This document shows positions 1 to 29,775 of a stretch of DNA of 30,074 bases, one piece after another. The notes beneath the pieces were generated by a model. It saw nothing but the letters and a program-made list of their open reading frames with translations. It was not told the DNA's origin and searched no databases. The DNA comes from a virus (taxonomy: Duplodnaviria > Caudoviricetes), in IMG/VR virus record IMGVR_UViG_3300025320_000141, positions 1-30,074 of that record; one strand, given 5' to 3'. The position numbers and the translations under genes were made by a program. Numbering within the stretch: the first letter of the stretch is position 1; the number at the start of each line of letters is the position of its first letter.

Positions 1-453
1 CTATAGGGCGGCGCGGAGCTTTTGCACATCGGCGATGAGGCCGCCGACCCACTGGGCGCTCGACGGATCTTGCGCCAGCTTCGCGATCGCCTCGGCGGTG
101 CCGCAGCCGGCTTCGATCCACACCGCGTAAGGGCCGGCGAGCGGCGACAGCGCCATCGCCGCGCTGCACACGGCGGCGAGTTGCGGATCGAGCGCCGCGG
201 CGGTGTCGGCGGCCTGCTGGCAGGCGGCGAGCGTCGTGAGCCCGGCAAGGCCCACGGCGACGACAAGGCCCTTGATGACACCGCGCTCCTTCAGGAGCAG
301 CGCCGCGAGGGCGCAGCCGGCGGCAAGCAATTGCGCGAGCTGACCGATCAGCGTGTCGGAAAAATGCAGGCCGAACACCGCGAGCACGGCGCCGAGGCCG
401 GCATAGGAAGAGGGCTCGCTGAAGCGGGCAAGCACATAGGCGAGGAGCGGCAT
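1..453 (-). CDS. Holin-like membrane protein fused to a lipobox-containing C-terminal part
   Basis: N-terminal RFSEPSSYAGLG plus two hydrophobic helices resemble small phage holins; then a third hydrophobic stretch ending LAAC; GAAAGGA SD; distal end of the particle operon. Confidence 0.55.
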   Translation of the reverse strand: MPLLAYVLARFSEPSSYAGLGAVLAVFGLHFSDTLIGQLAQLLAAGCALAALLLKERGVIKGLVVAVGLAGLTTLAACQQAADTAAALDPQLAAVCSAAMALSPLAGPYAVWIEAGCGTAEAIAKLAQDPSSAQWVGGLIADVQKLRAAL

Positions 454-477
454 GACGTGTCCTTTCGGTTGGAGATG

Positions 478-499
478 AAAAAAGCCGCCTCGCGGCGGC
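478..499 (-). terminator. Intrinsic terminator-like hairpin upstream of the holin-like gene
   Basis: Minus strand reads GCCGCC-GCGA-GGCGGC-TTTTTT. Confidence 0.6.
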
Positions 500-500
500 C

Positions 501-694
501 GGTGAATTCACCCGGTGAACTTCACAATGAGGCGGTGAGACAGCGAGAACGAAAGCTTCGACGCAGATGGGCGACCCCTTTCCACCTCGTCATCCCGGCG
601 AAAGCCGGGATCCACTTTTCATCCTCTCGTGCGGTGGATCGGTGGGTCCCGGCTTTCGCCGGGACGACGGATTTGGATTGCGCGCCGCGCGCGC
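501..694. repeat. Composite palindromic repeat cassette (A motif, REP pair, C motif)
   Basis: TTCACAATGAGGCGGTGAGACAGCGAG at 521; GTCATCCCGGCGAAAGCCGGGATCC ... GGGTCCCGGCTTTCGCCGGGACGAC; TTGCGCGCCGCGCGCGC at 678. Confidence 0.85.
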
Positions 695-704
695 GGAGCC
701 GCGG

Positions 705-1037
705 CTATTTGCGGTCCTGTTTGCGCACAAGGGAGGTGCGCAGATCGGCGATCGCCTGCATGACGCGTTCGAGCGCGGCGCGCATATCGGCCTCGAACTG
801 ACGGTCCTCGGTGCGGCGCTCCTCGATCAGCCGCTCGGCGACGACGAGGCGCGCCTCGTGACCGGCGAGCGCGACGCGAAACTCGGCGCGCTGCGTTTCG
901 AGATCCGAGCGCAGGCTCAGATAACCGCCGAGGACGCCGCCGCCGACCGTCGCGATAACGACGACCGCCTGCACGAGATGCCCCAGCGTGATGTCGGGCG
1001 TGAAATGCGGATGCAGCATGCTGAAATGGTCGGACAT
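705..1037 (-). CDS. Membrane-anchored coiled-coil protein, lysis-region type
   Basis: ITLGHLVQAVVVIATVGGGVLGGYL transmembrane segment followed by a charged helical tail; lies between tail gene and holin; start uncertain. Confidence 0.6.
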   Translation of the reverse strand: MSDHFSMLHPHFTPDITLGHLVQAVVVIATVGGGVLGGYLSLRSDLETQRAEFRVALAGHEARLVVAERLIEERRTEDRQFEADMRAALERVMQAIADLRTSLVRKQDRK

Positions 1038-1271
1038 CGAGAAGCTTTCCAAACCGGGAATTGACAACGAGACGGCGACACGGCGAGACAACGAAAAAAG
1101 GAACGCGTCACCGTAGAGGTGAGGCGTTTTGTTTGCGCCTTGCGTGCGCAGCTGCGTCACAGGGCGCGCCGCTTGATCCAGGTTAAAAAAAACTTGCTGG
1201 CAGCTAAGTGCCTTCTGAATACACTGCGCCGCGGCAGGTGTTTGCCCATCGTCGTTGCGCTGCGAGGGCTC

Positions 1272-1725: not shown

Positions 1726-2769
1726 CTACAGGGCGCCGGTGAGCGTCCAGGCGAGGTTGGCGAGCGTTGCGTCGGGCGAGGCCGGCGCCGTTATCGTCAA
1801 GACATCGCCCGCCGCGAAACCCGTCGCGGATGCCATCGTGAACGTTGCGGCCGCCGCGCCGGCGGCGAACACCATCGTACCGACTATTGAGCCGTTCTTC
1901 GCGATCGTGAACGTGGCGTTTGCCGTCGCGGCAGCGCCGGCGCTGCCGTAGCTGCCGCCGAGCCCCGCCGGAAAATTCACCGCCGTCGCGAAGATGTAAC
2001 GCTCGATCGTTTGCGACGCCGCGGGGCTGCCGGACCACGAGCCCGATACATAGGCCGGGCCCTGGATCGCGCCGTCGCCGGTCAGGCTGTAGCTCGTCGG
2101 CGTGAGGCCGGCGAGGCCTTGCAAGGATTGGCCGAAAATGTTGAAGGCGGGCAGCTTGACGTGGATCGTCTGGCCGATAAAACTCGCGGGGTAGACGTAT
2201 TTGAACAACGACGGATCGTTCGGTCCGAAGCGCGCGAAACTGGCGCCCGCGGAGTGCGCGCCGACCGGCGTGCCGTAGACGCCGCGGCGCAGATAGGTGA
2301 GATTGTATTTGTACGCGGCGGTCAAGGTCGCGGTGCGGTAGGCGAGCAATTCACCATCGGCGTAGCACAACGTGACAAAGGCGTCGGCGTCGGCGGTCGT
2401 ACCGGAGAGGAGCTGGCCCTGGCTTTGCGACAGATCGACCGACAAGGTGTCGGTTGTGTCGGGGTCGGCGTGGCTCGGCAGCGCCGCCGTGAGGACGCCC
2501 TGGCGGCCGCCGCGATAGATCGTGCCGGCATAGGCGTAGCTCGTGCCGTCGAGCGACACCCAGATCTGGCAGCCGCCCCAATGCGTGCCGCCGGTCGCGA
2601 CGATCCACACCTCGGTGTCGCCGGCGGTGAGCCCCGGCGGCGGCTCGAACAGGATCGGCGGGTTCGTGTCGCCGGGCAGGGCGAGCGGGTCGAGCGGGGC
2701 GCCGGCGGAGGTCTGCTTCGGATAGGCGAGCGCCGTGCCGATGCCGATCGGTGAGATTGTGCCGGGCAT
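1726..2769 (-). CDS. Tail/host-specificity protein, C-terminal part
   Basis: WGGCQIWVSLDG, DGELLAY and YLRRGVYGT motifs typical of the C-terminal half of Phage-tail_3/gpJ/GTA g15-like proteins, plus a beta-rich terminal domain. Confidence 0.8.
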   Translation of the reverse strand: MPGTISPIGIGTALAYPKQTSAGAPLDPLALPGDTNPPILFEPPPGLTAGDTEVWIVATGGTHWGGCQIWVSLDGTSYAYAGTIYRGGRQGVLTAALPSHADPDTTDTLSVDLSQSQGQLLSGTTADADAFVTLCYADGELLAYRTATLTAAYKYNLTYLRRGVYGTPVGAHSAGASFARFGPNDPSLFKYVYPASFIGQTIHVKLPAFNIFGQSLQGLAGLTPTSYSLTGDGAIQGPAYVSGSWSGSPAASQTIERYIFATAVNFPAGLGGSYGSAGAAATANATFTIAKNGSIVGTMVFAAGAAAATFTMASATGFAAGDVLTITAPASPDATLANLAWTLTGAL

Positions 2770-2772
2770 TTA

Positions 2773-3057
2773 TTCACCACTGAGACGGTGAGACGGTGAG
2801 AAGAAAAAGAAGTGAACGCTTTACCGCGGAGGGCGCGGAGGATACGCAGAGGACGCGAAGGCACTGGAGCGATTTGATCCGCCATCGCGTCCTTTGCGTT
2901 ACCTAATCTGTTGCGCGCTGCGCGCAGAGGATTCCTTTCCCGTCGTCCCGGCGAACGCCGGGACCCACTTATCAGAAGCCCCGAGCTGCCGAACGGTGGA
3001 TCCCGGCCTTCGCCGGGATGACAATCTTATCTCACCGTCTCACCGCCTCTGCGGTCA
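2773..3057. repeat. Composite repeat cassette bounded by inverted A motifs
   Basis: TTCACCACTGAGACGGTGAGACGGTGAG ... CTCACCGTCTCACCGCCTC; encloses B arm, C motif (2911) and a CCCGGCGAACGCCGGG REP pair. Confidence 0.9.
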
Positions 3058-3062
3058 GACTA

Positions 3063-4403
3063 TTACGGGGTGACCTCCGGGATTTCATCGGCGGTGATCG
3101 TCAGCTCGCCGTTGTCGTCCTCCTCGATCGCGACGATGCGCACGGCTTTGCTGGACAGGCCGAGGGTTGTGTCGGTCAGCAGCACGATGTCCATCGGTTC
3201 CAACAGCGCGTAGCGCCAGCCGAGCCTGAATTTGTAGGTGTTGCGCACATAGGCCTTGCGCTGCAACAGGAATTGCGCGGCGATCGTGGCGCTCGCCGGG
3301 TTGGTGAATTCATGCGCCTGCACCGGCGGCTCGCTGCGCAACCCGTACTGGTCGATGAGGCCCTGATCGAACACCGCGACGAGCTGCGGGTTGTAGCTGT
3401 TCGTGCTGTCCATGTATTCGAGCGAGAGCCAATTCGTCGCCTGCGCCGGATCGCTGCGCGTGAGGAGCACCGGATCCGTTGCATTGTCACCGCTGCCCCA
3501 GCGCAGAAAATCGCCGTCGCCTAGACTGTATTGCCACGTCAGGTTCGGCGACCACGACGCGCCGTTGGCGTTGAGCGGTTGATCGCCATAAGGGATGATC
3601 TTCAGCAGATTGCCCGACCACAGAACCGCGGCGCCTGTCAGGAGCGCGATCTCCTCGAGCCAGCGCGCTGCCGGCTGCTGCTTGTCGACGAGGAGCGACA
3701 TCGCGAGCTGCGCCGCCTGACAGTAGGTGCCCCAATCGGCGAGGCTGCCGCCGGTGTCGAGATTGGCCGCGGGGAAGCCGGCGCCGTAGCGCGGGTTGGT
3801 CAACAGATCGGCGACGATCCGATCGGGCCGCGCATCATGCGGAAAATTCGGCCCGGCGGTGCCGGAGGCCACCCCGTAGATCTCGAACGAGATGTTCGGC
3901 AGCGCCGGCGACGAGCCGAGCTGAATCGGCGTGCCGGTGACATAAGCGGTGCCGGAATAGCCGAGCACCGGCGTGTTGGTGTCGGCCGAGGCGAAGACCG
4001 GGTCGGGCGCCTGGCCGTCAACGCCGGCATAGCCGTTGAGGCCGATTGCGGCGAGGCCGGAGGCGACCCCGCCATTCGACCAGATGCGCAGCGCCCCGCC
4101 CGTGCCATCGGTGAAGGATATGGGACCTTGGCACAGGCCGAAGCCGACATCGACGGCGAATTGCTGGTTCGAGCCCTTCTTGCCGCCGGAGGAGCCGAGC
4201 CCCTTGCCGCCCTTGCCGCCCGAGCTGCCGGTGAAGCCCCAGAATTCGAGCAGGTTTACCGTGACGCGCTGGGTGCCGTAGCAGAGATGGACCGGGCTCC
4301 CCGCCATGCTCGTGTTGTAGCGCAGCGAATTGAGCTGCGGGTGGTCGAAGGCGTTGACGAACGGGCTCGGCCCGCCGCCCTTGCCGGTGGGGATGTCGGA
4401 CAT
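3063..4403 (-). CDS. Tail protein (Phage-tail_3 / gpJ / GTA g15-like), N-terminal part
   Basis: GSPVHLCYG, PNISFEI, DLLTNPRYGAG and LEPMDIV motifs; follows DUF2460-DUF2163-NlpC/P60. Confidence 0.85.
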   Translation of the reverse strand: MSDIPTGKGGGPSPFVNAFDHPQLNSLRYNTSMAGSPVHLCYGTQRVTVNLLEFWGFTGSSGGKGGKGLGSSGGKKGSNQQFAVDVGFGLCQGPISFTDGTGGALRIWSNGGVASGLAAIGLNGYAGVDGQAPDPVFASADTNTPVLGYSGTAYVTGTPIQLGSSPALPNISFEIYGVASGTAGPNFPHDARPDRIVADLLTNPRYGAGFPAANLDTGGSLADWGTYCQAAQLAMSLLVDKQQPAARWLEEIALLTGAAVLWSGNLLKIIPYGDQPLNANGASWSPNLTWQYSLGDGDFLRWGSGDNATDPVLLTRSDPAQATNWLSLEYMDSTNSYNPQLVAVFDQGLIDQYGLRSEPPVQAHEFTNPASATIAAQFLLQRKAYVRNTYKFRLGWRYALLEPMDIVLLTDTTLGLSSKAVRIVAIEEDDNGELTITADEIPEVTP

Positions 4404-4413
4404 GTCGGTTCAA

Positions 4414-4810
4414 TTCACCAGTGAGACGGTGAGAAAGGAAGAGAAGAGAAAACGGTTTACCGCGGAGGACGCGGAGGATGCGCAGAGGACGTGAAGGCGC
4501 TCCGCCAAGACCGTCATTGCGAGGAGCGAAGCGACGAAGCAATCTCGTCGGGAGTGCGCACCTGGAACGAGATTGCTTCGCATCGCTCCCAATGACAGCT
4601 CTGTCTTCGCGTACATCGCGTGTCCATTGCGCCCTTCGCGTTACCTAATGTGTTGCGCTGCGCGCCGCCAAGCTGGATCTACAAATGGGCGTCCTTCGAG
4701 ACGCGCTCCTGCGGAGCGCTCCTCAGGATGACGGCTTTGTTGATGCCGGCTAAACCATCCCGTCACCCTGAGGAGCGGCCGGCAATAGCCGGACGCGTCT
4801 CGAAGGACGC
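4414..4810. repeat. Composite repeat cassette with nested REP pairs
   Basis: A motif at 4414; B arms enclosing a GTCATTGCGAGGAGCGAAGCGACGAAGCAATC pair; C motif at 4653; GTCCTTCGAGACGC...CTCAGGATGA pair. Confidence 0.9.
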
Positions 4811-4828
4811 GGGTTCCTCATGCAGCAG

Positions 4829-5245
4829 TCAAAACGGGGAGAAGAAGCGGACGGGGCGGGCGACGAGCGGGTGCAGCGTCGCATCGCCATGCACGACGCC
4901 GATGTTCCAGTAGGCGTGAATGAGGCGCGGCCATAGGGTGACGATCGCGCCGTGCGAAAAGGTGCGGCCGAAACGGAACAGCGCGATATCGCCGGGAAGC
5001 GGCGGGCCGCCGATCTCGCGCGCATGGCGGCACAGGCCTTCAAGGTAGCGCTCGGCGTCGCGGTGCAGATGCCAGTCCGGCACGTAGAAGGGCGGATCGA
5101 CATGCGCGATCATGCCCGCGCGCTCATACACCTCGGCCAATAGCATCAGGCAATCGATGCCGGCGCCCTTGACCCGGGCGGCGTGGTGAAACGGCGTCCC
5201 GATCCAGCTCTCGGCCTCGGCGACGACGGCGGCGCGGAGTGACAT
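4829..5245 (-). CDS. NlpC/P60 family tail-associated cell-wall peptidase (GTA g14-like)
   Basis: AESWIGTPFHH, GIDC catalytic Cys, PGDIALF, SHGAI His, LIHA; GTG start. Confidence 0.9.
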   Translation of the reverse strand: MSLRAAVVAEAESWIGTPFHHAARVKGAGIDCLMLLAEVYERAGMIAHVDPPFYVPDWHLHRDAERYLEGLCRHAREIGGPPLPGDIALFRFGRTFSHGAIVTLWPRLIHAYWNIGVVHGDATLHPLVARPVRFFSPF

Positions 5246-5264
5246 TTTTGGCTCTGCTCTCTAG

Positions 5265-5475
5265 TTAACGCGAAGGGCGCGAAGGATACGCAAGGGACGC
5301 GATGGCGCTCCGCCAAGACCGTCATTGCGAGGAGCGGAGCGACGAAGCAAATTTGTCGGAGTGCTCGCCGGGAACGAGATTGCTTCGCTTCGCTCGCAAT
5401 GACAGCTCTGCCTTCGCGTTCCTTTGCGTATCCATTGCGTCCTTTTGCGTTCTCTAATTTGTTGCGCTGCGCGCG
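5265..5475. repeat. Composite repeat cassette, near-copy of 4480-4665
   Basis: GGCGCTCCGCCAAGACCGTCATTGCGAGGAGCG...AATGACAGCTCTG shared with the previous cassette; C motif at 5462. Confidence 0.9.
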
Positions 5476-5486
5476 TGGAAGGCTCA

Positions 5487-6407
5487 TCACACCGCGGTTT
5501 CGGGGGGCGGGATGTAGGGGAAGCCGCCGTAATGCACGAGGTTGTTGAAGGTGCCTTGGCACGTCGCCACCGTGTGGTCGCAGCCCGGCAGAAAGCGGAA
5601 CGTGTCGCCGAGCGCGACGGAGTAGAGCCACGCCTTCAGCTGGTACGCGACGCCGCCCAGCATCTGGCGGATCGTGCGCGTGAGGCCGGCATTGGCGCCG
5701 GTGAGCCCCAGCATCGTGCCCTGGTCGAACAGGGTCGTCGGGCTCGCCGCGAGCGCGGTGTGGATCTCGGACTGCGTCGAGCCGGCGAGCGCCGCGGCGG
5801 TCTGCGCCAGCGTCGTGCGGTCGAAGCCGCACATCGCATCGCCGAAGACATGCGTGCACGCCGCCTGATAAAGCCGGCGCGGCATCTGCTGGATCGCGAG
5901 CAGGTTCATCAACGACTTGACCTTGAGCTGGATTTTGCTGCGGCCGACATCGCAATCGGCGACACGGCCCGTGAACCACACGACCGCGCCGAGCGAGGTG
6001 TCGAGGCCGCCATGGGTGTCGGGTTGCGGCGGTGCGAACAGGCGACCGAGTTCGACGGTCGCGCCATCGAACAGACCAAGCCGTACCGCGTCGGCGAACG
6101 ACACCGTGCCGATTGTGTCGGACGCGGCGGCGAGAATTTCGATATCGAGCTCGGTGGGCTGCACGCCTGTTTTGGTCGCGACCTTCGAGCGGCCGAACCG
6201 CGGACCGAGCGCGAAAGAGGTGTAATCGAGCGCATTATAATTGAGGCTGCCGGCCGGAAACAGCGTGCCGGGAATTTGCAACGCGGTGGTCCAGCCGGAA
6301 TAGCGCAGCACCTCGCCGGTCGCGAGCGCAAAGGTATAGAGATCGGTGACGATGAAGGTGTCGTTCGCCGCGAGATAGGCGGCGAGCGCGGCGGAGCACG
6401 GTCGCAT
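5487..6407 (-). CDS. DUF2163 / BR0599 family baseplate hub protein (GTA g13-like)
   Basis: GLFDGA, CTHVFGDAMC, GCDHTVATC...FNNLVHYGGFPYIP; likely start MRPCSAAL. Confidence 0.9.
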   Translation of the reverse strand: MRPCSAALAAYLAANDTFIVTDLYTFALATGEVLRYSGWTTALQIPGTLFPAGSLNYNALDYTSFALGPRFGRSKVATKTGVQPTELDIEILAAASDTIGTVSFADAVRLGLFDGATVELGRLFAPPQPDTHGGLDTSLGAVVWFTGRVADCDVGRSKIQLKVKSLMNLLAIQQMPRRLYQAACTHVFGDAMCGFDRTTLAQTAAALAGSTQSEIHTALAASPTTLFDQGTMLGLTGANAGLTRTIRQMLGGVAYQLKAWLYSVALGDTFRFLPGCDHTVATCQGTFNNLVHYGGFPYIPPPETAV

Positions 6408-6419
6408 TTCAGCACCAGT

Positions 6420-6710
6420 AGAAAAAGGGAACGCTTTACCGCAGAGGACGCGGAGGGCTCGCAGAGGACGCGATGGCATCGGGGCGGCTAAAGCGCCGTC
6501 GCGCCCTTCGCGTCTCCACTGTGTCTTTCGCGGTAGCTAATTTGTTGCGCGCTGCGCGCATGTAGATCCCCCTCACCCCGGCCCTCTCCCCGCAGGCGGG
6601 GAGAGGGAGAGTCGGCGGCGCTACCGGGCGCAAACCGTCGGGGTATTCGCGTTGCATTGGCAGCCGCGTTCCCTCTCCCCGTCCGCGGGGAGAGGGACAG
6701 GGTGAGGGGC
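6420..6710. repeat. Composite repeat cassette
   Basis: B arms (TTTACCGCAGAGGACGCGGAGG), C motif at 6545, CCCCTCACCCCGGCCCTCTCCCC...GGGAGAGGG pair. Confidence 0.9.
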
Positions 6711-6719
6711 GGATCGGGT

Positions 6720-7346
6720 CTATAGGAAGACGGATTGGAGCTTGATCTGGCGAGCCTGCCAGAGCTGGATCATGAAGTTCTCGAATTCGGCGGTGTCGTC
6801 CGCGAAACGGACGCGGAAGAAATAGGTGAAATCGGCGGTGATCGCCTGGCCGGAAGGCGGCGGGGTCGTGAAGGTCACGAGGCCGGTCGCGGGATCGACC
6901 GAGTAATTCGACGCGGGCTGCGCGACGCCATTGAAATAGATCGCCGAGACGAGGTTCGGCGCGGTGATCGGCTCGGCGAAACCGCCCATGGCGCGCACGA
7001 GCCGAAAGATTGCGGTGCTGTTGTCGCCGGCGCCGAGGACACCGGCTGTGACGCGGTCGTCGGTCGGGTCGTCGAACAGAAACGGCTGCAGCGCGCCCTG
7101 CTGCTGCAGAAAAAAACCGGCCAAGGTGCGGAGTTCGTCGTAGCCGATGCCGGGGCCGTTCGGCGAACGTGCGTCGTTGCGGTCGCGCAGCAGCGGGTAA
7201 GTCAGTGTCCAGTTCCAGATCGGATAGGGCTGGTCGAGCGCGCGCAATTCGCGGCCGTTGACGGCGCGCTGGATGCGCGTCGCGAAACGCGGCGATTTGG
7301 TGACGGACCAGCCGAGGCCCGGCAATGACGGAAAGATCGCGGTCAT
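6720..7346 (-). CDS. DUF2460 family distal tail protein (GTA g12-like)
   Basis: PRFATRIQRAVNGRE, FLFDDPTD, TGLVTF, ITADFTYFFRVRF. Confidence 0.9.
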   Translation of the reverse strand: MTAIFPSLPGLGWSVTKSPRFATRIQRAVNGRELRALDQPYPIWNWTLTYPLLRDRNDARSPNGPGIGYDELRTLAGFFLQQQGALQPFLFDDPTDDRVTAGVLGAGDNSTAIFRLVRAMGGFAEPITAPNLVSAIYFNGVAQPASNYSVDPATGLVTFTTPPPSGQAITADFTYFFRVRFADDTAEFENFMIQLWQARQIKLQSVFL

Positions 7347-7356
7347 GCGGTTTCAT

Positions 7357-7683
7357 TTCAGCAATGAGACGGTGAGGCGGCGAGAGGCCCGGGCCGCGAG
7401 TAGGCTAAAGAGTAGATAACGCAAAGGACGCAAAGGAGACGCAAGGGACGCGATGCCATGGAGTGGCTGAAGCGCCATTGCGTCCTTCGCGTATCCCTTG
7501 GGTCCTTTGTGCTATCTGATTTGCTGCGCGCTGCGCGCGCAGCCTGCTGCACAAATAAGGTGCGTCCTTCGACACGCGCCGCAGCTGCGCCGCAGCGCTG
7601 CTCAGGATGAGGTCGGTTGTTGATGGCAACCAAAAGCCTATCCTCATCCTGAGCGCGAGCGCAGCGAGCAGTCGAAGGACGCA
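7357..7683. repeat. Composite repeat cassette
   Basis: A motif at 7357, B arms, C motif at 7525, GTCCTTCGA...CTCAGGATGAGG / CCTCATCCTGAG...GTCGAAGGAC pair. Confidence 0.9.
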
Positions 7684-7706
7684 CGATGCCGATCCAGCTC
7701 CCCGCC

Positions 7707-8924: not shown

Positions 8925-8939
8925 GGGTCACCTCAAATG

Positions 8940-9053
8940 AAAAGAAAACGCTTTACCGCAGAGGACGCTGAGGTTTCGCGAGGGCGCAGGGCCGTCGGAC
9001 GGCTGGGACGCCATCGCGTACCTCCGCGCATCCCACGCGTCCTCCGCGGTGAA
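8940..9053. repeat. B-type palindromic element
   Basis: AACGCTTTACCGCAGAGGACGC ... GCGTCCTCCGCGGTGAA. Confidence 0.85.
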
Positions 9054-9062
9054 TCTTTTGAC

Positions 9063-9728: not shown

Positions 9729-9931
9729 CCCCACTTCCCTTCGCAAGCCGCCGCGAATTATGCCGCGCCCTCGCCGGTCGGCAATGCGCCAAACGCGCCA
9801 CGACGCATCGCGGGCTGCTCGCCCGATCGTGAAATCGCGTTCAGCATCGGCGGTTGAGCTTTCCGGCGCCGGAACCGAGGCATCGCGATGCGTGTTGCCA
9901 GATCGAATTTGTCAACCGCAAGGAGAACACG

Positions 9932-10916: not shown

Positions 10917-10928
10917 ACATCCCTCACT

Positions 10929-11043: not shown

Positions 11044-11053
11044 GTCTTTATTG

Positions 11054-18063: not shown

Positions 18064-18102
18064 GGCAACACGAAGGCTTCGCTGTAAAAAGCAAGGGTTA
18101 TC

Positions 18103-18225: not shown

Positions 18226-18235
18226 AGCGCCGCTC

Positions 18236-19729: not shown

Positions 19730-19734
19730 GTTTG

Positions 19735-20187: not shown

Positions 20188-20227
20188 TCCGATCGTCCTT
20201 CAATCAGCGGAGTCTCGAAAACATCAG

Positions 20228-20465
20228 TTCACAACGAGACGGCAAGGCAGCGAGCAGGCAGCGCGCGGCTCGCAATCTAGGTAACGCGAAGGACACGAAG
20301 GGCACACAAAGGACGCGAAGGCAACTTCAGCTGCTTCGATGCCTTCGCGTCCCCGGCGTGACCTCTGCGTCCTCTGCGGTGAAGTGTTTTTGTTGCGCGC
20401 TGCGCGCGCGAGGCTTGCGGTCTCGTTGTAAATTTGGCGGGTTACGCTTCGCTAACCCGCCCTAC
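20228..20465. repeat. Composite repeat cassette overlapping the portal stop
   Basis: A at 20228, B arms, C at 20393, GGCGGGTTACGCTTCGCTAACCCGCCCTAC at 20436-20465. Confidence 0.9.
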
Positions 20466-21782: not shown

Positions 21783-21807
21783 GCGTCATGCTCCTGAGAA
21801 AAAGGGG

Positions 21808-22032
21808 TTCACAACGAGGCGGTGAGGCAGTGAGAAAAAGCGCGCCATGGGCGCGCAAAAAAGAAGAACGCTTTACCGCAGAGGACGCCAAGGATGCGCA
21901 GAGGTACGCGATGACGTTTTGGCCACTGCGATGCCTTCGCGTCCTTTGCGTGCCCCTCGCATCCTTCGCGTTACCTAATTTGTTGCGCGCTGCGCGCGCG
22001 ATAAGCTCGCTGCCTCATTGTCTCGTTGTGAA
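21808..22032. repeat. Composite repeat cassette bounded by inverted A motifs
   Basis: TTCACAACGAGGCGGTGAGGCAGTGAG ... CTCGCTGCCTCATTGTCTCGTTGTGAA enclosing B arms and C (21983). Confidence 0.9.
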
Positions 22033-22082
22033 TTTTGGCGGGTTTCACCCGTCCTGCGGCGTGGTTTCGAATAACCTCGGAA

Positions 22083-22295
22083 CTAGAGGTCTTCGGGTCG
22101 CAACCCTGTGTGTCTAGCTATCCTAGCGAGCGCAACCGGCCCGATTTCAACGTCGTCGTGAAACGCGAAAACATAGTCGGGCCATCCGATCCGCTGCAGC
22201 GTGCGATGCGAGCCCGATTGCCGTTTGATCCGCCACCCGATCCGTTGCAGGGCTCTAAGGACGAGTCTCGCCCTGGTGGATGGCCAACTCCTCAT
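22083..22295 (-). CDS. hicA: HicA family toxin
   Basis: 70 aa, basic; GWRIKRQSGSH motif, FHD..EIGP. Confidence 0.9.
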   Translation of the reverse strand: MRSWPSTRARLVLRALQRIGWRIKRQSGSHRTLQRIGWPDYVFAFHDDVEIGPVALARIARHTGLRPEDL

Positions 22296-22495
22296 GCTCC
22301 GACGAAGTAGTCGTGCACATTGATCGGCACCGGCTCGCCGTGTGCGATCCGCTCGCCGATGACCCGGAATGCAAGAGCGATCGTATTGATCCGCGCCTCG
22401 GCTTCCGTAGCGCCGTAAGCCATGACGCCGGGCAACTCCGCAATCTCGCCGAGCCAGCGCCCGTCGCTTTCGCGCTCAATCTCGATCCTGAGCAT
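22292..22495 (-). CDS. hicB: Short HicB family antitoxin
   Basis: ERESDGRWLGEIAELPGVMAYGATEAEA; ATGA overlap with hicA; no DNA-binding domain. Confidence 0.88.
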   Translation of the reverse strand: MLRIEIERESDGRWLGEIAELPGVMAYGATEAEARINTIALAFRVIGERIAHGEPVPINVHDYFVGA

Positions 22496-22619
22496 CCGTC
22501 CAACCCCGCTTGCGATCGGGCCTGTCGCGGAAACTGCCCGCTTTTTCGCCGGGCGACAAGCGCACAGTTTCCGTCCAAGGGGGTAAACGAAGCATTTCCC
22601 GGCTGGGTCCACGATTTAC

Positions 22620-25205
22620 TCAGAAACTGGACAAGGCGGCGCGTTTCCAAGTGTTGGGTGCGGTGCAGGCGTAGAGGTAGTTCGAGTCGAACTGGAGCTG
22701 GCCGGTCTGGCAGGCGGCGCTGCTCGACGCGGGCGTGCCGATTGCCGGGAACATGCCGTTCGATGACGCGGTCGCCGGGCTCGCGGTGACGAGGCGGAAA
22801 TTGCTGCCGTCGAACTGCAACGCGACCTCTTCGTAATTCTGCCCGTAAAGCTTCAGCGAGGATTGCGCGCCGCGCGTGCCGGGCATCAGGATCTGGCCGC
22901 CGCTCGTCGCGTTGACCTGGACCGTGAGGCTCTTGCCGTTGTCGGTGACAAACGACATCGACCAGCCCGCGCTGATCGCGGTCGTCGACGGCAAGGTGAC
23001 GGTGAGGCTCGCGATCGGCGTATTGTAATTCGAGATCGTCAGGCCGCAATCGGCCGGGCCGGCGGCGTAGCTGCTGACCGACGGGAAGCTCCAGCGCGAG
23101 AGACACGTCGCGCCGGTCAGGCCGATAGCGGCGGCGGTGACCGGCGTCACCTGCAACAGGCGGAAATTCGAGCCGTCGAACTGCACGAGCGCCAATTCGT
23201 AATTGCCGGCAGCGAGCTGCACCGAGCCGGTTGCGGCGCCGCTCCCGGGAAACACGATGCGGCCGCCGTTTGTCGCATTGACCTGCAGCGCGGCGGTCTT
23301 GCCGTTGTCGTTGGCGACCGCCAGAGTCCAGCCCGGGTTGATCGTGTTGACCGGCGGCAGGGTGACGGTCAGATAGGCGAGCGGCGAGTTGAACGCCGAG
23401 ATCGCAGCGCCGTTGTCGGCAACGCCGGCATTGTAGGCGCTGACCGACGGGAAGACCCAGCGCGTCAGGCCGCCGATGCCGGCGAGACCCAATTGCTGCG
23501 CCGTCGCCGGGGTCACCTGCTCGACGCGGAAATTGCCGCTGCCGTCGTATTGCAGCGTGACATATTCGTAGAGATCTCCGGCCAGGGTCAGCGAAGTCTG
23601 GGTGGCGGCGTTGGCGAGCGGGTACAGGATATGGCCGCCGGCGGTCGGGTTGACCTGCACGGTCAGCCCCTTGCCCTGATCGGTCGCGAGGCCGATCGAC
23701 CACCCCGACGGCAAATTCGTGGTGGACGGCAAGGTGACGGTGAGGCCCGCGGCGGTGTTGTAGCTCGACAGCACATTGCCGTTGTCGCCGAGCGAAGCGG
23801 CGTAGCCGGGGGTCGAGGGATAGAGCCAGTTGCCGGGCCAGTCGCGGCTCTGCAACCCGTTGGTGGCGAGCGTGTTGCGGGTGCCGGCGGTGACGCGGAA
23901 ATTGTTGCCGTCGGATTCGAGCTGCAGGAACTCGTAATTGCCCGGGCCGAGCGTCACCGAGGACAGCGACTTGCCGCCGGACAGGATGTTGCCGCTGGGC
24001 GCGGTGACCGTGAGACCTTTGCCGTTGTCGGTCGCGAAGCCCATCGACCAGCCGGCGCCGACCGCGCTCGGGCTCGGCAATGTCACCGCCAAGGACGCGC
24101 CCGGCGCGTTGAAGGATGAGAGCATGGTCTTGTCGTCGATACCGGCCGCCGTGTAGGTCGGGGAGGAGGGGAACTGCCACGCCTCACGGTTGCCGGTACC
24201 GACGATCTGGATGCCGACCGATTGCGGGCCGCGGTTGACGACCGAGCCGGCATAGGTCGGGTTGATCAGCACGTTGCGCGTCGAGGCGGTCGCGTTGACC
24301 GCGGTGGCGCAGGCGAAATAGGGCGACACAAAACTGTTCTGTCCATCATGCGGGGCGGTGATGCCGAGACAAGTGGGCGAGGCTTCCATGTCGAAGGCGA
24401 AGACCGTGTTGGCGAAGTTGAACCCGTTTTCGAGGAGCAGCGCCGTGCCGCCGGTGCCCGAGGCGGTGCCGGCGCCGGAGATGCGCGAGAATTGCGTCTG
24501 CTCGAGCGCGAGACCGGCGGCGCCGCCAGCGCTGTCGGCGACGGCGTAGATGTCGCTGTCGAGGACGTAATTGAGCTGTAATCCGCCGGCGGTCGAAGCC
24601 GTCGAGGCGTTGTTGACGACGAGGTGATCGATTTTCGCCGAGTTGTGCGCGTCGGAGAAATCCGGCTTGCCGATACGCACCGCGTAATCGGGGGTCGAGG
24701 CGTTGACGAACAGCGTGCCTTCCTCGCGCAAATAGAAGCAATTGGCCGGGCTCGCCGGCGTGCCGCCGGAGCATGCGACGCGCAACACGTCGCCGGATGC
24801 AATCGTGCGGCCGTCCAAGGTGGCGCCCTCGGAAATCAGGCGGAAGCCCTTGCCGCTCTGACCGGCGTAATCGATCGTGATCCGAGCGGTGATCTTGTAG
24901 GCACCGGCCGGGAGGTGCACCGGCCAGTTGTTTGTGACGGCAGTGTTGACCGCGGCCTGGATCGCCGTGGTGTCGTCGTGGCTGCCGTCGCCGACCGCAC
25001 CGCCTGAATTGCCCGGGCAGCGCACGTCGAGCCAGGGATGACCCGAGCACATCAACACATCGCCGTTGAGGGTCGCGGCGCCGGTCGTCGACAAGGTCGA
25101 GAAATTACCGGGCGATTGCGCGCGCGCCGGGCTCGGGAGCCAGGGGCCAGGGATCAAGAGAGCGATCAGGCTGATGGACGGTAGGAGGAGACGGGTGAAC
25201 CGCAT
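22620..25205 (-). CDS. Secreted tailspike/fibre-like protein: pectate-lyase-like beta-helix plus four repeated domains
   Basis: Signal peptide ending ARA; GAVGDGSHDDTTAIQAA...PAGAY; four W.(F/Y)PS...TLP...GW...DG.NFR units; C-terminal PASSSAACQTGQLQFDSNYLYACTAPNTWKRAAL phage fibre-type motif. Confidence 0.8.
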   Translation of the reverse strand: MRFTRLLLPSISLIALLIPGPWLPSPARAQSPGNFSTLSTTGAATLNGDVLMCSGHPWLDVRCPGNSGGAVGDGSHDDTTAIQAAVNTAVTNNWPVHLPAGAYKITARITIDYAGQSGKGFRLISEGATLDGRTIASGDVLRVACSGGTPASPANCFYLREEGTLFVNASTPDYAVRIGKPDFSDAHNSAKIDHLVVNNASTASTAGGLQLNYVLDSDIYAVADSAGGAAGLALEQTQFSRISGAGTASGTGGTALLLENGFNFANTVFAFDMEASPTCLGITAPHDGQNSFVSPYFACATAVNATASTRNVLINPTYAGSVVNRGPQSVGIQIVGTGNREAWQFPSSPTYTAAGIDDKTMLSSFNAPGASLAVTLPSPSAVGAGWSMGFATDNGKGLTVTAPSGNILSGGKSLSSVTLGPGNYEFLQLESDGNNFRVTAGTRNTLATNGLQSRDWPGNWLYPSTPGYAASLGDNGNVLSSYNTAAGLTVTLPSTTNLPSGWSIGLATDQGKGLTVQVNPTAGGHILYPLANAATQTSLTLAGDLYEYVTLQYDGSGNFRVEQVTPATAQQLGLAGIGGLTRWVFPSVSAYNAGVADNGAAISAFNSPLAYLTVTLPPVNTINPGWTLAVANDNGKTAALQVNATNGGRIVFPGSGAATGSVQLAAGNYELALVQFDGSNFRLLQVTPVTAAAIGLTGATCLSRWSFPSVSSYAAGPADCGLTISNYNTPIASLTVTLPSTTAISAGWSMSFVTDNGKSLTVQVNATSGGQILMPGTRGAQSSLKLYGQNYEEVALQFDGSNFRLVTASPATASSNGMFPAIGTPASSSAACQTGQLQFDSNYLYACTAPNTWKRAALSSF

Positions 25206-25251
25206 TCCTGTGTGCTCCTGATCCCTGGCCACTGACTCTCGAAGACGGAAG

Positions 25252-25667
25252 GTCACGATGAGACGGTGAGACAGTGAGGAATGAGAACGCTTTAATGCAG
25301 AGGTCGCAGAGGATACGCGGCGGTACGCGATGGCGGCTCAACCGCTCCGATGCTTTTGCGTCCTTTGCGGTAAAGAGTTTTCTTGACCGCTTCTTTTAAA
25401 TCAGGTCCCGGCAAGGCCGGGACCCATTGATCCGCTCGCCAAGAGGTTGACGAATGGATCCCGGCCTGCGCCGGGATCCATTGCGGGCGGGACGCCCGCG
25501 GTCCGAAAGGCGGTCGGCGGGATCGCCTTCGTGCGTCCTTCGAGACGCCCGCTTCGCGGGCTCCTCAGGATGAGGGATGATTTTGATGCCATCGACAATG
25601 TCTCCTCATCCCCGGCCTGCGCCGGTGCAGGCTCTGAGCGCGAGCGTAGCGAGCAGTCGAAGGACGC
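25252..25667. repeat. Composite repeat cassette with several REP families
   Basis: A, B, CCCGGCAAGGCCGGG pair, GCGGGCGGGACGCCCGCGGTCC, GTCCTTCGAGACG...CTCAGGATGAGG pair. Confidence 0.9.
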
Positions 25668-25692
25668 TGGTTGCTGTTGCAGTATGTGCGGA

Positions 25693-26136
25693 TTACCAGC
25701 GGCGGGCGGCGAAGGCCTGGCCGGTCGTGCCGCCGAACAGGCTGACGGGTCCGGCCGGCTTGTAGCCCGACGGGGTCACGAAGAGGCCGCCGTTCGGCGC
25801 GAGCTGGAGCGAGGCGCCGCCGTCCGAGGCGGCACCGGTATCGCAGATCCACAGCGCGGCCGAGGAATTGTTCTGCACCAGAAAGCCGTTGGCCGGCACC
25901 GCGCCGCCGAACAGCGTCTGCGCGCTGCCGCCCGCTGCGACCGTGCCGCTGCCGTCGCTCGCGGAGTTGGCGGCGGTGTTGACGACGGGCAGCGGGTTCT
26001 GCGGGCCCACAGGCGCGGCGACGCCCTGCGCGTTGGTCGAAGCGGGCGCGTGCGCCGGCACCAGATTGCCGCTCGCATCGATGACGGTCGACAGCGATTG
26101 CACGGTGGTGTTGGCGTCCTTCACGAGAAGGGTCAT
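25693..26136 (-). CDS. Small beta-rich virion-type protein
   Basis: GGAG SD; NPLPV, GFLVQN, C-terminal AARRW; directly after TerL. Confidence 0.75.
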   Translation of the reverse strand: MTLLVKDANTTVQSLSTVIDASGNLVPAHAPASTNAQGVAAPVGPQNPLPVVNTAANSASDGSGTVAAGGSAQTLFGGAVPANGFLVQNNSSAALWICDTGAASDGGASLQLAPNGGLFVTPSGYKPAGPVSLFGGTTGQAFAARRW

Positions 26137-26151
26137 CGGGGCTCCATTGGG

Positions 26152-26287
26152 TTCACAACGAGGCAGTGAGACAGCGAGAAAGAGAATGCTTTACCGCAGA
26201 GGACGCGGTGGATTACGCAAAGACGCGACCTCCGCGGTAGAGCGCTTCTTCTTGTCGGCGGGTTACGCTTCGCTCACCCGCCCTACG
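26152..26287. repeat. Composite repeat cassette
   Basis: A at 26152, short B hairpin, GGCGGGTTACGCTTCGCTCACCCGCCCTAC. Confidence 0.85.
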
Positions 26288-26291
26288 GGGC

Positions 26292-27662
26292 TCAATCATC
26301 CGGCTGTGCGGCGGCGCGGAGGCGGTAATCCTCGAAGATCGCGCCGCCGGGCATCGGCGCGAGGAACAGTTCGGTCAAGGCCCAGACGAGCGCGTCGACC
26401 CGGTCGGGCGAATAGCCGGCGACGTCGCGGTCGAAATCGGCGCTGAACGCGCACATCTGGTCCTCCAGCGCTGCGAAGGCGCCGATGTGGTGCACCCTCC
26501 CCTGTTCGTAGAGCGCGGCGACCGGCTCGGCGCGGGCCACCTTGCCGTGCGCGGCGTGCACCGCGGTGAACGGCGCGTTCGGGTCGACCGTGCGCAGCAT
26601 CGCCTCGACCATCTCGCCGCCGTTGTTCACCTCCGCGACGATGCGGTCGGCATGATGCGTGCGATACGCAATGATCGCGGCCCTCGCCCATTCGAGCGGC
26701 GCGTACCGGTTCGACAGATCGGCCAAGACATAGCCGTGTCCCTCGGCGTCGCGGCCGGCGATGATGATGCCGGTTTCGTCGGCGTGCTCACCGGACGTCG
26801 CGGCCGGATCGATCGCGACGACGATCCGGACCAGATTTGGATGCGCGTTGATCCGGGCCGCATCGATCAGCCCATGCGTCCACAAGGCGCCCGGCATGTC
26901 GTCGAGCAATTCGCCGTCGAGTTCCTGGCGGCCGAGCCGGGTGCCCTCGTAGCGCCGCACGATCTGCGCGAGAAAAGCGGGCGCCAGATTGCCGGCTTTG
27001 TCGGCGGTTCGGCCGCGCGTCACCGCGACGCTCGGGTCGGCGAGCAGGTCGCGGATCAATTTGATCGGGCGCGGCGTCGTCGTGACGACGCAGCGCGGAT
27101 CGGCGCCCCCCGGACCAGCCAATCGCAGACCGAACATCAGCATGTCCCAGGCCTGCGGGTAGCGCCATGCGGCGAGCTCGTCGCACCAGGCGAGGTCGTG
27201 CTGCGGGCCGCGCAAGCGGTTGGGCTCGTCGGCCGAAAACAACGTCGCGACGGCGCCGTTATGCCAGGTCAGGCGGTGCAGCGACGGCTCGTAATGCGGC
27301 CGTTCGTGCGCTGGGCCGATCGACAACAGACCGCTCTCGCCCTCGACCATGACGCTGCGCGCGTCGAGCGCAGTCGGCGCGACAAGCGCGATATGCCGCG
27401 CCTCGCCGGATTTGACCTTTGCGCGGACATATTCGGCGCCGGTGCGGGTCTTGCCGAAGCCGCGCCCGGCGAGCAACAGCCAGATGCGCCAATCCCCAGG
27501 CGGCGGCTGTTGCTCAATCCGCCCCCAGAACTCCCATTCGTGCCGGAGCTTCCGGGCTTTCGGCTTCGGCGCTCCCCGGAGGAGCTCCGCTAGTTCCTCC
27601 TCGTCGAGCTCGCAGGCGAGCGATCTCGCGGATAAGGAACTCGCGGGGATCCTCTCCGTCAT
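26292..27662 (-). CDS. terL: Terminase large subunit, RcGTA-like
   Basis: Walker A AGRGFGKT, LRGPQHDLAWCDELAAW, VTTTPRP, VAIDPA, SPDRVDALVWALTEL. Confidence 0.95.
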   Translation of the reverse strand: MTERIPASSLSARSLACELDEEELAELLRGAPKPKARKLRHEWEFWGRIEQQPPPGDWRIWLLLAGRGFGKTRTGAEYVRAKVKSGEARHIALVAPTALDARSVMVEGESGLLSIGPAHERPHYEPSLHRLTWHNGAVATLFSADEPNRLRGPQHDLAWCDELAAWRYPQAWDMLMFGLRLAGPGGADPRCVVTTTPRPIKLIRDLLADPSVAVTRGRTADKAGNLAPAFLAQIVRRYEGTRLGRQELDGELLDDMPGALWTHGLIDAARINAHPNLVRIVVAIDPAATSGEHADETGIIIAGRDAEGHGYVLADLSNRYAPLEWARAAIIAYRTHHADRIVAEVNNGGEMVEAMLRTVDPNAPFTAVHAAHGKVARAEPVAALYEQGRVHHIGAFAALEDQMCAFSADFDRDVAGYSPDRVDALVWALTELFLAPMPGGAIFEDYRLRAAAQPDD

Positions 27663-28035
27663 CGTCGTCCTGCTCTCCGTTGCTCGCTTCGCTTTTCAGC
27701 TTCTCCAGCTTGTCGAGCCAGCGGAGCAGCAAGGCGAGCGCCGACGGCTTGTCATGCATCTTGACGCGATAGATCTTCTGATCCTTCGCGGATGCGATAA
27801 TCTCGGCGACGGCGGCCCGGTCGGCGTCGTCGAGATCGCCGGAGGCCGTCATCGTCAGCGTCTCGGTGTCCCAACTGACGACGCGCGTGATGTCGCCGAA
27901 GGCGATCCACGCAAGCGCCTGAAGCACGCGGTCCAATGTGATGCCGAGCCGCGCGGCGCGCTCGGCGACCTCTTCCAACGGCAACAGGCCGGCGATGCGC
28001 GCCGGCCCGTTCCGAAAGCCTTGCGGCTCGGCCAT
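27514..28035 (-). CDS. terS: Terminase small subunit, apparently lacking the N-terminal HTH
   Basis: ITLDRVLQALAWIAFGDI and VKMHDKPSAL match the Terminase_2 oligomerisation core; immediately upstream of and overlapping terL. Confidence 0.8.
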   Translation of the reverse strand: MAEPQGFRNGPARIAGLLPLEEVAERAARLGITLDRVLQALAWIAFGDITRVVSWDTETLTMTASGDLDDADRAAVAEIIASAKDQKIYRVKMHDKPSALALLLRWLDKLEKLKSEASNGEQDDDDGEDPREFLIREIARLRARRGGTSGAPPGSAEAESPEAPARMGVLGAD

Positions 28036-28039
28036 TTCT

Positions 28040-28095
28040 TCAATCCGGATTGTGCAGTGTGCCTGAGTCGTATCATATCAATCCGGATTTGTCAA
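28040..28095 (-). promoter_or_regulatory. Putative sigma70 promoter of the particle operon with two AATCCGGATT palindromes
   Basis: Minus strand TTGACA-N17-TACGAC with extended TG; TCAATCCGGATT at 28040 and 28078. Confidence 0.65.
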
Positions 28096-28108
28096 GTTAA
28101 AAATGTAG

Positions 28109-28996
28109 CTACCGCAAAAATTTTGGCGCATCGAGGTGCGATTCGAGCGCGCCGAGCGCTGCGATCAATATACCGGAAGCCGCTTCCTGGCTGACCCGCC
28201 GGCCGCTCCAGCCCTGGCCCAAAGCCCATTCCTTCAGCGGCAATTGCCAGCCGACGACATGCCACAGGCAGGAGCCGGCCGGGGAGCCGATGCCGCCGAC
28301 CGCCTGCACGGCGCGCCACACGGTCGCGCGGGCCGCCTCGGCGCGCGGCCCCGGCACCGCCTTGTCGGGACGCGGGCCCTCCTCGGCGATGCGCAGATGC
28401 GACGGATCCGAGGCGCGCAACGGGTCGAGCTGAGCCACCGTGAAGCGGGCGCGAAAATCTTCGCCGGCCTGGCGCATCGCCGGCGTGATCGAGCCGCGCC
28501 GCTCCATCACCGCGAGGGTATCGACCGCGCGATAAGGCCGCGACCGGCGGCCCGCCGCATCGAGGATCGGCTGCGCGAGGGGCTCGACAAGGCCGTGGCG
28601 CAGGCGCTCCGGGGTGGGGCCAAGATCGGAGGCCATCGCGTCCCGATCATCGTGCCGCTGGACGATATTGCGCTTCGACATGTTTCCTCCATGAACATAA
28701 CGTGAACGATCTGGCCATAAAAAAAGCCGGGTGACCCGGTCGAGGCGGCGCAGCAGCGGTTCGGGCGGCTCGCGCGCGTCCCGGCCGAGGCGACCGCCGA
28801 CGACCCGCGCCAAGGCTTCCTCTTCGGCGAGCTCGCGATGCTCGGCCCCGCTCCCGGGCGGCACATGGCACAGCGCATGATGCGCCGGGCAGAAGCTCGA
28901 CCCGGGCCGGCGGGGCTGGCCGCACGCGACCGCCTCGCGGCCCTCCTCGCCGAGCGGATAAGCACAGCCGAAATCCTCGTTGTGATCCTCGCGCAT
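28109..28996 (-). CDS. GcrA-C-terminal-like domain fused in frame to a DUF6456 (GafA/GafYZ-like) regulator; internal start at 28681
   Basis: CAYPLGE...CG...SFCPAH; DTLAVMERRGSIT...QAGEDF...LWHVVG...LKEWA...ILIAALGALESH; GGAGG SD before the ATG at 28681. Confidence 0.7.
   Translation of the reverse strand: MREDHNEDFGCAYPLGEEGREAVACGQPRRPGSSFCPAHHALCHVPPGSGAEHRELAEEEALARVVGGRLGRDAREPPEPLLRRLDRVTRLFLWPDRSRYVHGGNMSKRNIVQRHDDRDAMASDLGPTPERLRHGLVEPLAQPILDAAGRRSRPYRAVDTLAVMERRGSITPAMRQAGEDFRARFTVAQLDPLRASDPSHLRIAEEGPRPDKAVPGPRAEAARATVWRAVQAVGGIGSPAGSCLWHVVGWQLPLKEWALGQGWSGRRVSQEAASGILIAALGALESHLDAPKFLR
28693..28707. promoter_or_regulatory. Alphaproteobacterial LexA box-like site
   Basis: GAAC-ATAACGT-GAAC (GAAC-N7-GAAC) next to the internal RBS. 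Confidence 0.55.
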
Positions 28997-29106
28997 TCCA
29001 CCCCCTTGCGCTTTGTTCTTGTTATTCCAGCATTGCAGTCATATATTGTCGCTCAGTCGAATGTCAATGGGACAATTGCGTCATCATTGCTCTTAGGGTT
29101 GCGACA

Positions 29107-29775
29107 ATGGATACCTCATGGTTTATGCAGACGTTGGAGCGGGCCGGGCTCAGCCAAGCCGATCTGGCGCGGCATCTGCGCCTCGCGCCGTCGGCGGTCT
29201 CGCGCATGCTGAAGGGCGAGCGCCAGATGAAATTACTGGAAGCGGCGCAGACCGCGAGCTTTCTCGGCGTGTCGCAGGACGAGGTGCTGCGCCGCGCCTC
29301 GGGCGACGCGCCGCCGGGATCGGTGCCGGAGGGGCCGCGCCGCCGCGGCCGGCCGCCGCTCGCGGTCACGCAATTGCGCAGCCAGACCGGCAACGAGCCG
29401 ATCCCGATCCGCAGCGCCGCGCGCGGCGGCGGCGGCCAGGAAATGTTTCTCGAGGACGGGCCGATCGGCTACACGCCGCGCCCCTCGAACCTGAACGGCG
29501 TGCGCGGCGCCTATGCGATCTACATGATCGGCGACAGTATGGAGCCGCGCTATCAGCAGGGGTGGCTGCTGCACGTCAACCCGTTCAAGCCGGCGATCCG
29601 CGGCCGCGACGTCGTCGTCTACAAAAAGGACAAGGCGGCGCTGATCAAGCAATTCGTCGGCTGGGAGAAGGACGCGCTGGTGCTGCGGCAACTCAACCCG
29701 GCGCGCGACTTGAAGGTGCCGCGCGAGGAGGTCGCCGAAGTCCACCTCGTCGTCGGCGTCGACCAGGAGGGGTAA
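29107..29775 (+). CDS. XRE-HTH plus S24 peptidase repressor (CI/RogA-like)
   Basis: LSQADLARHLRLAPSAVSRMLKGER HTH; GDSMEPRY and LIKQF catalytic Ser/Lys motifs; divergent from the operon. Confidence 0.92.
   Translation: MDTSWFMQTLERAGLSQADLARHLRLAPSAVSRMLKGERQMKLLEAAQTASFLGVSQDEVLRRASGDAPPGSVPEGPRRRGRPPLAVTQLRSQTGNEPIPIRSAARGGGGQEMFLEDGPIGYTPRPSNLNGVRGAYAIYMIGDSMEPRYQQGWLLHVNPFKPAIRGRDVVVYKKDKAALIKQFVGWEKDALVLRQLNPARDLKVPREEVAEVHLVVGVDQEG

Follow-up and report, generated by a model that had tools for sequence, protein, structure and literature searches.

Few independent origins of gene transfer agents (GTAs) are recognised, and the route from phage to GTA is an open question. By the definition used here, GTAs are Caudoviricete-derived particles that are endogenized, carry mostly random host DNA, mediate gene transfer and are too small to hold their own genes (Kogay 2022; PMC9662315). 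In this work, we analyzed a 30,074-nucleotide stretch of DNA (the window), filed as virus record IMGVR_UViG_3300025320_000141, which an earlier note had read as a GTA-like system with its own regulator. The window is a piece of bacterial chromosome cut out as a 30 kb virus record; its host would belong to Stellaceae, a mostly uncultured soil family, the name being taken from the labels of the closest homologs (Stellaceae or Alphaproteobacteria). That it holds a real domesticated phage locus spread across this family we regard as highly likely. We take the element to be a separately domesticated lambdoid phage reduced to a repressor, a Q-like activator and a late operon. We further consider it somewhat probable that this chromosomal, mostly vertically inherited remnant without integration or replication genes is an independent GTA that would package random host DNA. 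Its particle proteins are Caudoviricete-derived, and it is fully endogenized and vertically inherited, with some losses and exchanges.

RcGTA and CcGTA (Rhodogtaviriformidae type) share with the Stellaceae element a chromosomal head-tail cluster without replication genes, a large terminase (TerL) of the same broad family, a small terminase (TerS) without a helix-turn-helix (HTH), a short tape measure, a DUF2460-hub-NlpC tail tip, and regulators of the DUF6456 activator and S24 repressor families. In contrast, the capsid, portal, neck and tail tube of the Stellaceae element bear no relation or only a distant one to theirs, there is no megatron, the regulators stand at the head of the operon, and a GcrA-like domain is found where GafY is DnaA-like. 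The capsid did not match TIGR01554, and scores stayed below the NCBIfam cut-offs, which the RcGTA-type loci of our class-wide sample pass, for the portal (TIGR01537, 65.6 against 112 bits), the megatron (NF048004, 70.8 against 800), the distal tail (TIGR02217, 63.3 against 136.65), the hub (TIGR02218, 78.7 against 80.5) and NlpC (TIGR02219, 70.1 against 81.9). The megatron was above cut-off in none of 172 family genomes; there were two partial matches, and the Caulobacter control was positive. TerL shares 52-57% identity with RcGTA-type TerLs and 43-57% with the phage TerLs compared, and forms its own clade outside that of RcGTA in a quick tree with a weak backbone. The proposal of a lineage distinct from RcGTA was supported.

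The second group of relatives comprises temperate lambdoid phages with a phrog_13692 capsid, namely Herbaspirillum NZ_CP034394, the Stellaceae prophages G122b and G129b, and Brevundimonas phage Polewnik. They have the same gene order and families from portal to tail tip, and capsids 41-76% identical to that of the element, but differ in their recombination, methylase and replication-region genes (with an integrase in G122b) and in their longer tape measures; outside Stellaceae this capsid is sporadic. The Herbaspirillum element, 43 kb and circular, has the order terS-terL-portal-protease-capsid-neck-tail-DUF2460-DUF2163-C40-tail-lysis together with replication and recombination genes, so that head and tail stem jointly from one phage family. 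A chimera of an RcGTA tail with a new head was ruled out, since complete phages natively carry the whole module. For the same reason, and given the sub-cut-off tail scores and the virus-like residues and separate clade of TerL, the likeness of TerL and the DUF2460-DUF2163-NlpC/P60 block to RcGTA does not reflect kinship with it. BaGTA, VSH-1 and PBSX, compared by description and not by sequence, are likewise independent domestications of phage morphogenesis genes, but no run-off replication helicase module was seen in the Stellaceae element.

An exact sequence search placed the window on L388, a contig of 108 kb, with an identical overlap. A free virus was ruled out because this contig continues into housekeeping genes. 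The ten genes beyond the repressor side encode a PIN toxin, a metallo-hydrolase, an FAA hydrolase, an SDR and an M17 peptidase, followed by a GIY-YIG protein, a luciferase-like enzyme, a baeRF protein, a DUF2267 protein and an esterase; no integrase is among them, 13.5 kb on the lysis side being outside our view. The metallo-hydrolase is the left neighbour both on this contig and in six relatives (80-86% identity). Among the cluster representatives scanned, the flanks consist of housekeeping genes fixed inside each host clade: five genomes of clade A have fabD-fabG-acpP-fabF-mltG-yicC-gmk on the downstream side, and five of clade B have lysC-ispG-hisS-prfA-prmC-clpB on the upstream side. No tRNA adjoins the element on L388, which rules out a tRNA integration site there (tRNAs occur in 4 of 43 loci). 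Contig depth is alike within the element (22-29) and outside it (24-27), a weak indication, and the run may be the source.

No integrase, recombination or replication family was matched by the 29-31 proteins of the window in a Pfam/PHROG scan. A genome-wide search found no tyrosine integrase within 40 kb of any of nine resident loci on long contigs, the nearest lying farther away or on another contig (two of the nine contigs stop ~7-13 kb past the lysis end), and no serine recombinase near the five resident loci examined; the control, complete prophage G122b, has a tyrosine integrase 28 kb from its capsid. It was thereby supported that neither the element nor its surroundings hold integrase or replication genes. 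An inducible prophage would be marked by an integrase, att sites and a replication module; integrase and replication module are lacking from the window locus, and no search aimed at att sites was made.

The capsid gene was found in 107 of 172 family genomes, mostly at a single locus, and the DUF6456 regulator in 135, with the core gene rpoB, our yardstick, in 139. These tallies take in the unpublished genomes G025, G026, G148, G166 and G167, none of which is in the trees. Gene order is conserved across loci. Over the 58 genomes with both data sets, a tree of nine element proteins and one of RpoB/RpoC had 32 of 55 splits in common (permuted mean 0.24, maximum 2; Mantel 0.86), and 24 of 36 well-supported host splits were recovered in the element tree. 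The ratio of nonsynonymous to synonymous substitution rates (dN/dS), pooled by the Nei-Gojobori method over 2-15 hand-picked close genome pairs per gene, was 0.10-0.23 in 18 of 19 element genes, with 0.42 for terS and 0.06 for rpoB; head, portal and terminase genes were among the best conserved (capsid 0.095), and element dS was of the same order as rpoB dS. Taken together, distribution, tree congruence, low dN/dS, flanking host genes and the lack of a nearby integrase bear out a long-domesticated, host-maintained locus.

The element could instead be a grounded cryptic prophage, kept for the immunity given by its repressor or as a reservoir of parts, whose structural genes slowly decay or are refreshed from live phages. 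The regulator is commoner than the capsid (135 against 107 genomes), heads have been deleted in four of five genomes examined, modules are exchanged with live phages and repeats have colonised the locus, all as this explanation expects. We nonetheless hold it to be improbable, because dN/dS, taken from as many as 15 genome pairs, stays at 0.10-0.23 for the genes of head, neck and tail alike, and the late promoter described below is near-invariant in 22 of 22 loci.

Further evidence comes from three genes of the particle operon:

27514..28035, minus strand: small terminase without N-terminal HTH (Pfam match begins at position 51 of 141)
26292..27662, minus strand: large terminase of the headful family to which RcGTA g2 and terminases of free phages also belong, with a virus-like DPA...DETG motif
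7707..8924, minus strand: short tape-measure protein, 405 aa (by position and comparison of loci)

The element shows two GTA-type changes, loss of the TerS HTH and a tape measure of about half length. A TerS HTH query matched within 3.5 kb upstream of terL at none of 21 clade A/B loci (17 with a TerS core, 4 without a TerS match) as against 9 of 12 clade C loci. RcGTA TerS also lacks the N-terminal DNA-binding domain, a loss proposed to remove sequence specificity (Sherlock et al., PMC6854486); clades A and B share this trait and clade C does not. Most tape measures fall between 250 and 540 aa, with a median of 370 for 63 loci (artefactually short calls included) and a few as long as 731, whereas those of three complete prophages have 860-1011 aa.

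These data also bear on a domesticated particle with another job, be it a PBSX-like killer, AlpA-like programmed lysis with DNA release or a decoy, whose packaged DNA may not be usefully delivered. All evidence for domestication fits such a particle equally, the activator resembles AlpA and Q, the fibre gene and cargo are variable, and PBSX reportedly packages random DNA without transduction. Weighing on the other side are the strong conservation of head, portal and terminase, when tailocins have no heads, and the fact that TerS lost precisely its specificity domain; we therefore consider this explanation unlikely, although it is the foremost of the alternatives.

Control of the GTA-like element would reside in the following features:

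29107..29775, plus strand: cI/RogA-like repressor with XRE HTH and S24 domain (Pfam/PHROG; Ser and Lys kept)
28997..29106, minus strand: divergent control region, with TTGACA at 29067-29062 and operator-like palindromes TTGNCA-N3-TGNCAA
28682..28996, minus strand: Cys/His domain like the GcrA sigma70-interacting (C-terminal) domain, in frame with DUF6456
28109..28681, minus strand: DUF6456 protein with a sigma-region-4-like HTH, predicted to act as a late activator-antiterminator of the GafZ/Q kind (Pfam, fold comparison)
28056..28095, minus strand: late promoter, with TTGACA, the conserved 17-nt spacer AATCCGGATYGATCTGA, -10 TACGAC and then the -10-like hexamer CACACT

Pfam/PHROG searches confirmed that the repressor, DUF6456 and terS genes are adjacent, without replication, recombination or integrase genes between them. 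This arrangement resembles lambdoid Q, phage 21 Q and Pseudomonas AlpR-AlpA, where AlpR is said to be the repressor: a repressor divergent from a gene for a sigma4-HTH antiterminator-like protein, an element conserved in the -35/-10 interval, and a hexamer of -10 type downstream. The Stellaceae activator differs in being fused to or paired with a GcrA-like domain and in having no sequence match to solved structures, and its antitermination activity is a prediction. The nearest phage matches of the repressor are 16-3-type repressor C (~29%). Palindromes overlap the divergent promoter, with 60 matches in 19 loci against a shuffled mean of 5.9 (maximum 16), the motif being derived from the same loci. 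The Ala-Gly cleavage site is present in clade C and replaced in clades A and B, so that SOS cleavage of the clade A/B repressor seems doubtful.

The DUF6456 open reading frame (28109-28996) scored 25.8 bits, with a cut-off of 26.3, and orthologs in four of five genomes were above it. Its fold aligned with a sigma4-like HTH (Z 8.7, root-mean-square deviation (rmsd) 1.5, 67 residues aligned), the longest alignments being with a chain of a Q-engaged complex (Z 6.8, rmsd 8.3, 119) and with AlpA (Z 6.2, rmsd 9.0, 114); the fold also matches Q21. Foldseek gave no match for the activator at E<=0.001, and no PDB sequence matched the DUF6456 profile or TerL. Each match of the GcrA-like domain is weak: Pfam GcrA at E=0.0047, below cut-off; Foldseek 5yix_B with prob 0.75, rmsd 1.8 over 38 columns and E=3.6; and an Atlas cluster with 24% GcrA. 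This domain is fused to DUF6456 in the window and in many homologs of ~290 aa, and split from it in others; the relatives examined encode it in an open reading frame of its own.

The late promoter, with its nearly invariant spacer, lies directly downstream of DUF6456 in all 22 loci of clades A and B (22 of the 31 loci in total), and the second and sixth bases of its -10-like hexamer, 5 nt past the -10, are A and T in 19 of the 22. It is present once in G001, once in G131 and twice in G036, and absent from two clade C genomes. Q requires a binding element between -35 and -10 plus a downstream -10-like sequence (PMC6606751), and GafZ, whose binding site lies in the same interval, mediates read-through of GC-rich hairpin repeats (PMC11150451); the layout found here agrees with the Q requirement and with the position of the GafZ site. 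Of the RogA/GafY-GafZ-like control put forward in the earlier note, the DUF6456 part stood: the domain carries a sigma-like HTH as in GafZ and GafA, and the same family was detected in Caulobacter. The RogA part did not, since Ser and Lys are present, whereas RogA, known here by description, is said to lack the S24 catalytic residues (PMC9632790). Nor did GafY, as no DnaA-like partner adjoins DUF6456, where the neighbour is GcrA-like; this holds for the immediate surroundings of the gene, to which the search for gafY was confined. A second exact late-promoter copy in G036 (L396, G036:C7) has no particle genes within 6 kb, and a DUF6456 homolog follows the primase of temperate phage AcaML1.

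Several observations weigh against a long-resident GTA. First, complete Stellaceae prophages carry the same module (G122b, G129b and the Mu-like G143b); G122b, which also has an integrase, methylases, a nuclease and a ribonucleotide reductase, nests in the A/B group, and A/B alone, without G122b and L128, was rejected in a quick tree (approximately unbiased test, p=1.7e-7). Second, G047 and G056 retain the resident site or regulators, yet group elsewhere, and 7 of the 36 well-supported host splits are contradicted by the element tree. Third, in four of five capsid-negative, regulator-positive genomes on long contigs the head is deleted internally at the same locus (the fifth is unclear), although assembly error is possible; one of the head-deleted genomes, G133, is a close relative of G131. 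Fourth, defective prophages of unknown use likewise show purifying selection. Besides, TerL lacks the RcGTA-type Pro282/Cys292 and has Ala/Thr there, all readable Stellaceae motifs being DPA...DETG, while RcGTA-type TerLs are mostly Pro/Cys at both sites (positions from PMC7947584, mapped by motif spacing); the fold Z-scores of DUF6456, 6-9, are middling; and no endolysin was found in the window, including between the lysis-region genes. Finally, clade C retains the TerS HTH, has another repressor and promoter, and is devoid of the late promoter motif; it may stand at an earlier stage or have been domesticated separately.

A host-restricted family of temperate phages that was grounded independently several times could also mimic a single ancient element. 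The flanks vary by host clade (A has the fabD side, some of B the clpB side, and C other flanks), there are two repressor types, that of clade C differing from the one shared by A and B, and complete prophages with capsids 68-76% identical occur inside the family. As A and B have a common repressor, GcrA-like gene, promoter and HTH-less TerS, and flanks are fixed inside clades, we judge this explanation very improbable for the family as a whole, even though it may well hold for clade C versus A/B. A new GTA family caught at several stages of domestication, in which clade C would retain a cleavable-type repressor and a pac-reading TerS, A and B would have lost both, and live phages would still swap modules, is a tentative proposal with a little less than even likelihood.

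Under the GTA interpretation, the S24 repressor would bind the palindromes over the divergent promoter and hold the system off. Derepression would allow the GcrA-like/DUF6456 protein to bind the conserved late-promoter spacer, to join RNA polymerase, in the manner of Q, where it pauses at the -10-like element downstream, and to read through the hairpin-rich 28 kb operon. The HTH-less TerS and headful TerL would then start packaging without a pac site, lysis would free short-tailed particles, and the delivered DNA would recombine in related cells. If true, the cI-Q-terS layout would mean that GTA control of the RogA/GafZ type is a lambdoid cI/Q switch left in place, and like repressor-activator-terminase cassettes on other heads in Alphaproteobacteria would point to many more undetected GTA lineages. 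The lineage offers within one family a graded series from complete prophage to resident element, marked by TerS HTH loss, tail shortening and repressor change, and its switch is compact enough for rebuilding in a laboratory alphaproteobacterium. In addition, hundreds of soil virus records (369 viral-contig stretches, to whose kind the window belongs) are probably pieces of this host locus, which bears on soil virome counts. No published account of this element, or of gene transfer agents in Stellaceae, was found in a coverage that leaves out most subscription papers and all supplements, which could hold such loci as "small RcGTA-like elements".

On the minus strand, the order is DUF6456, terS, terL, fibre, portal, protease, capsid, adaptor, tail tube, tape measure, DUF2460, hub, NlpC/P60, tail and lysis region. 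The remaining features are:

29811..30074, plus strand: likely antitoxin of a PIN toxin-antitoxin pair, outside the element (the next open reading frame on L388 is PIN_3)
25693..26136, minus strand: conserved 147-aa protein of no known family (dN/dS 0.13)
22620..25256, minus strand: tail fibre/spike-like protein with pectate-lyase-like N-terminus and internal repeats (Pfam/PHROG)
20442..21782, minus strand: portal (PF04860, phrog_2662)
18236..20187, minus strand: variable cargo, a GDSL/SGNH-domain protein and a 150-aa protein (GDSL in one of the compared loci)
15918..17225, minus strand: prohead protease/scaffold (Pfam/PHROG, NCBIfam)
14256..15749, minus strand: major capsid protein, HK97 fold with a large insertion (phrog_13692)
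13220..13861, minus strand: head-tail adaptor (Pfam/PHROG)
12469..12903, minus strand: likely tail terminator (by position relative to the Herbaspirillum element)
10192..12226, minus strand: small conserved open reading frame, likely tail tube (11054-11821) and tail assembly chaperone pair (phrog_8234; position relative to the Herbaspirillum element)
1726..7346, minus strand: tail tip, with DUF2460 distal tail, hub, NlpC/P60 and a tail protein in two open reading frames (Pfam/PHROG, NCBIfam)
1..1037, minus strand: lysis region, a 110-aa membrane/coiled protein and a holin-like protein with a lipobox-like motif (holin by position and hydrophobicity)
2803..26226, no strand: 14 intergenic GC-rich hairpin repeats of host type, 100-150 nt (10 of 14 fold with z below -2)

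The predicted capsid model (predicted local distance difference test, pLDDT, 65) matches HK97-fold capsids. Core proteins are as long as their orthologs, in line with the earlier note, which saw most structural genes intact despite the repeats. The latter are host repeats enriched in the locus, as their families also occur in the chromosomal flank; being in addition lineage-limited, they were ruled out as a component of the element. The holin-like protein has no family match, and the c1 gene found in the adaptor-terminator gap of many relatives had no match in the window. Endolysin families of the lysis regions vary by clade, with a PF11860 muramidase in part of A, GH25 in some A/B, and GH108 with a 3TM holin in C. 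Between cargo and protease, a low-GC open reading frame of 240 aa (17341-18063, plus strand) in opposite orientation encodes a membrane/coiled-coil protein, and the interval from chaperones to tape measure holds a gene (9063-9746, minus strand) for a protein of 227 aa that is predicted to be secreted, has no Pfam match and is present in 11 loci of clade A.

Elsewhere on the parent contig, the GIY-YIG gene (L388:15046-15460) lies between two host repeats that contigs of the run join without it, which suggests a repeat-associated mobile nuclease. The Mu-like element of G143 (C1, ~765-810 kb; L213-L215), beside ftsZ, has a Mu transposase C-terminus, GemA and gp27, along with the head-tail module that the genome's resident copy also carries. 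In the class-wide sample, the capsid was found in 5 and the TerL family in 91 of 351 genomes, both counts including G001. This TerL family, with a virus-like DPA...ETG motif, occurs in many small (0.8-2.5 Mb) alphaproteobacterial genomes (L344-L362). In other Alphaproteobacteria (L363, L364, L365, L368, L369), an S24 repressor is divergent from DUF6362 or other small genes, after which come terS and a terL of this family; no replication genes were seen in between, and these cassettes carry different heads (P22-coat with DUF4055 portal, or HK97 capsid) and are candidates for further independent domestications. A capsid homolog of 36% identity is also found in Neisseria gonorrhoeae chromosomes, presumably in a prophage.

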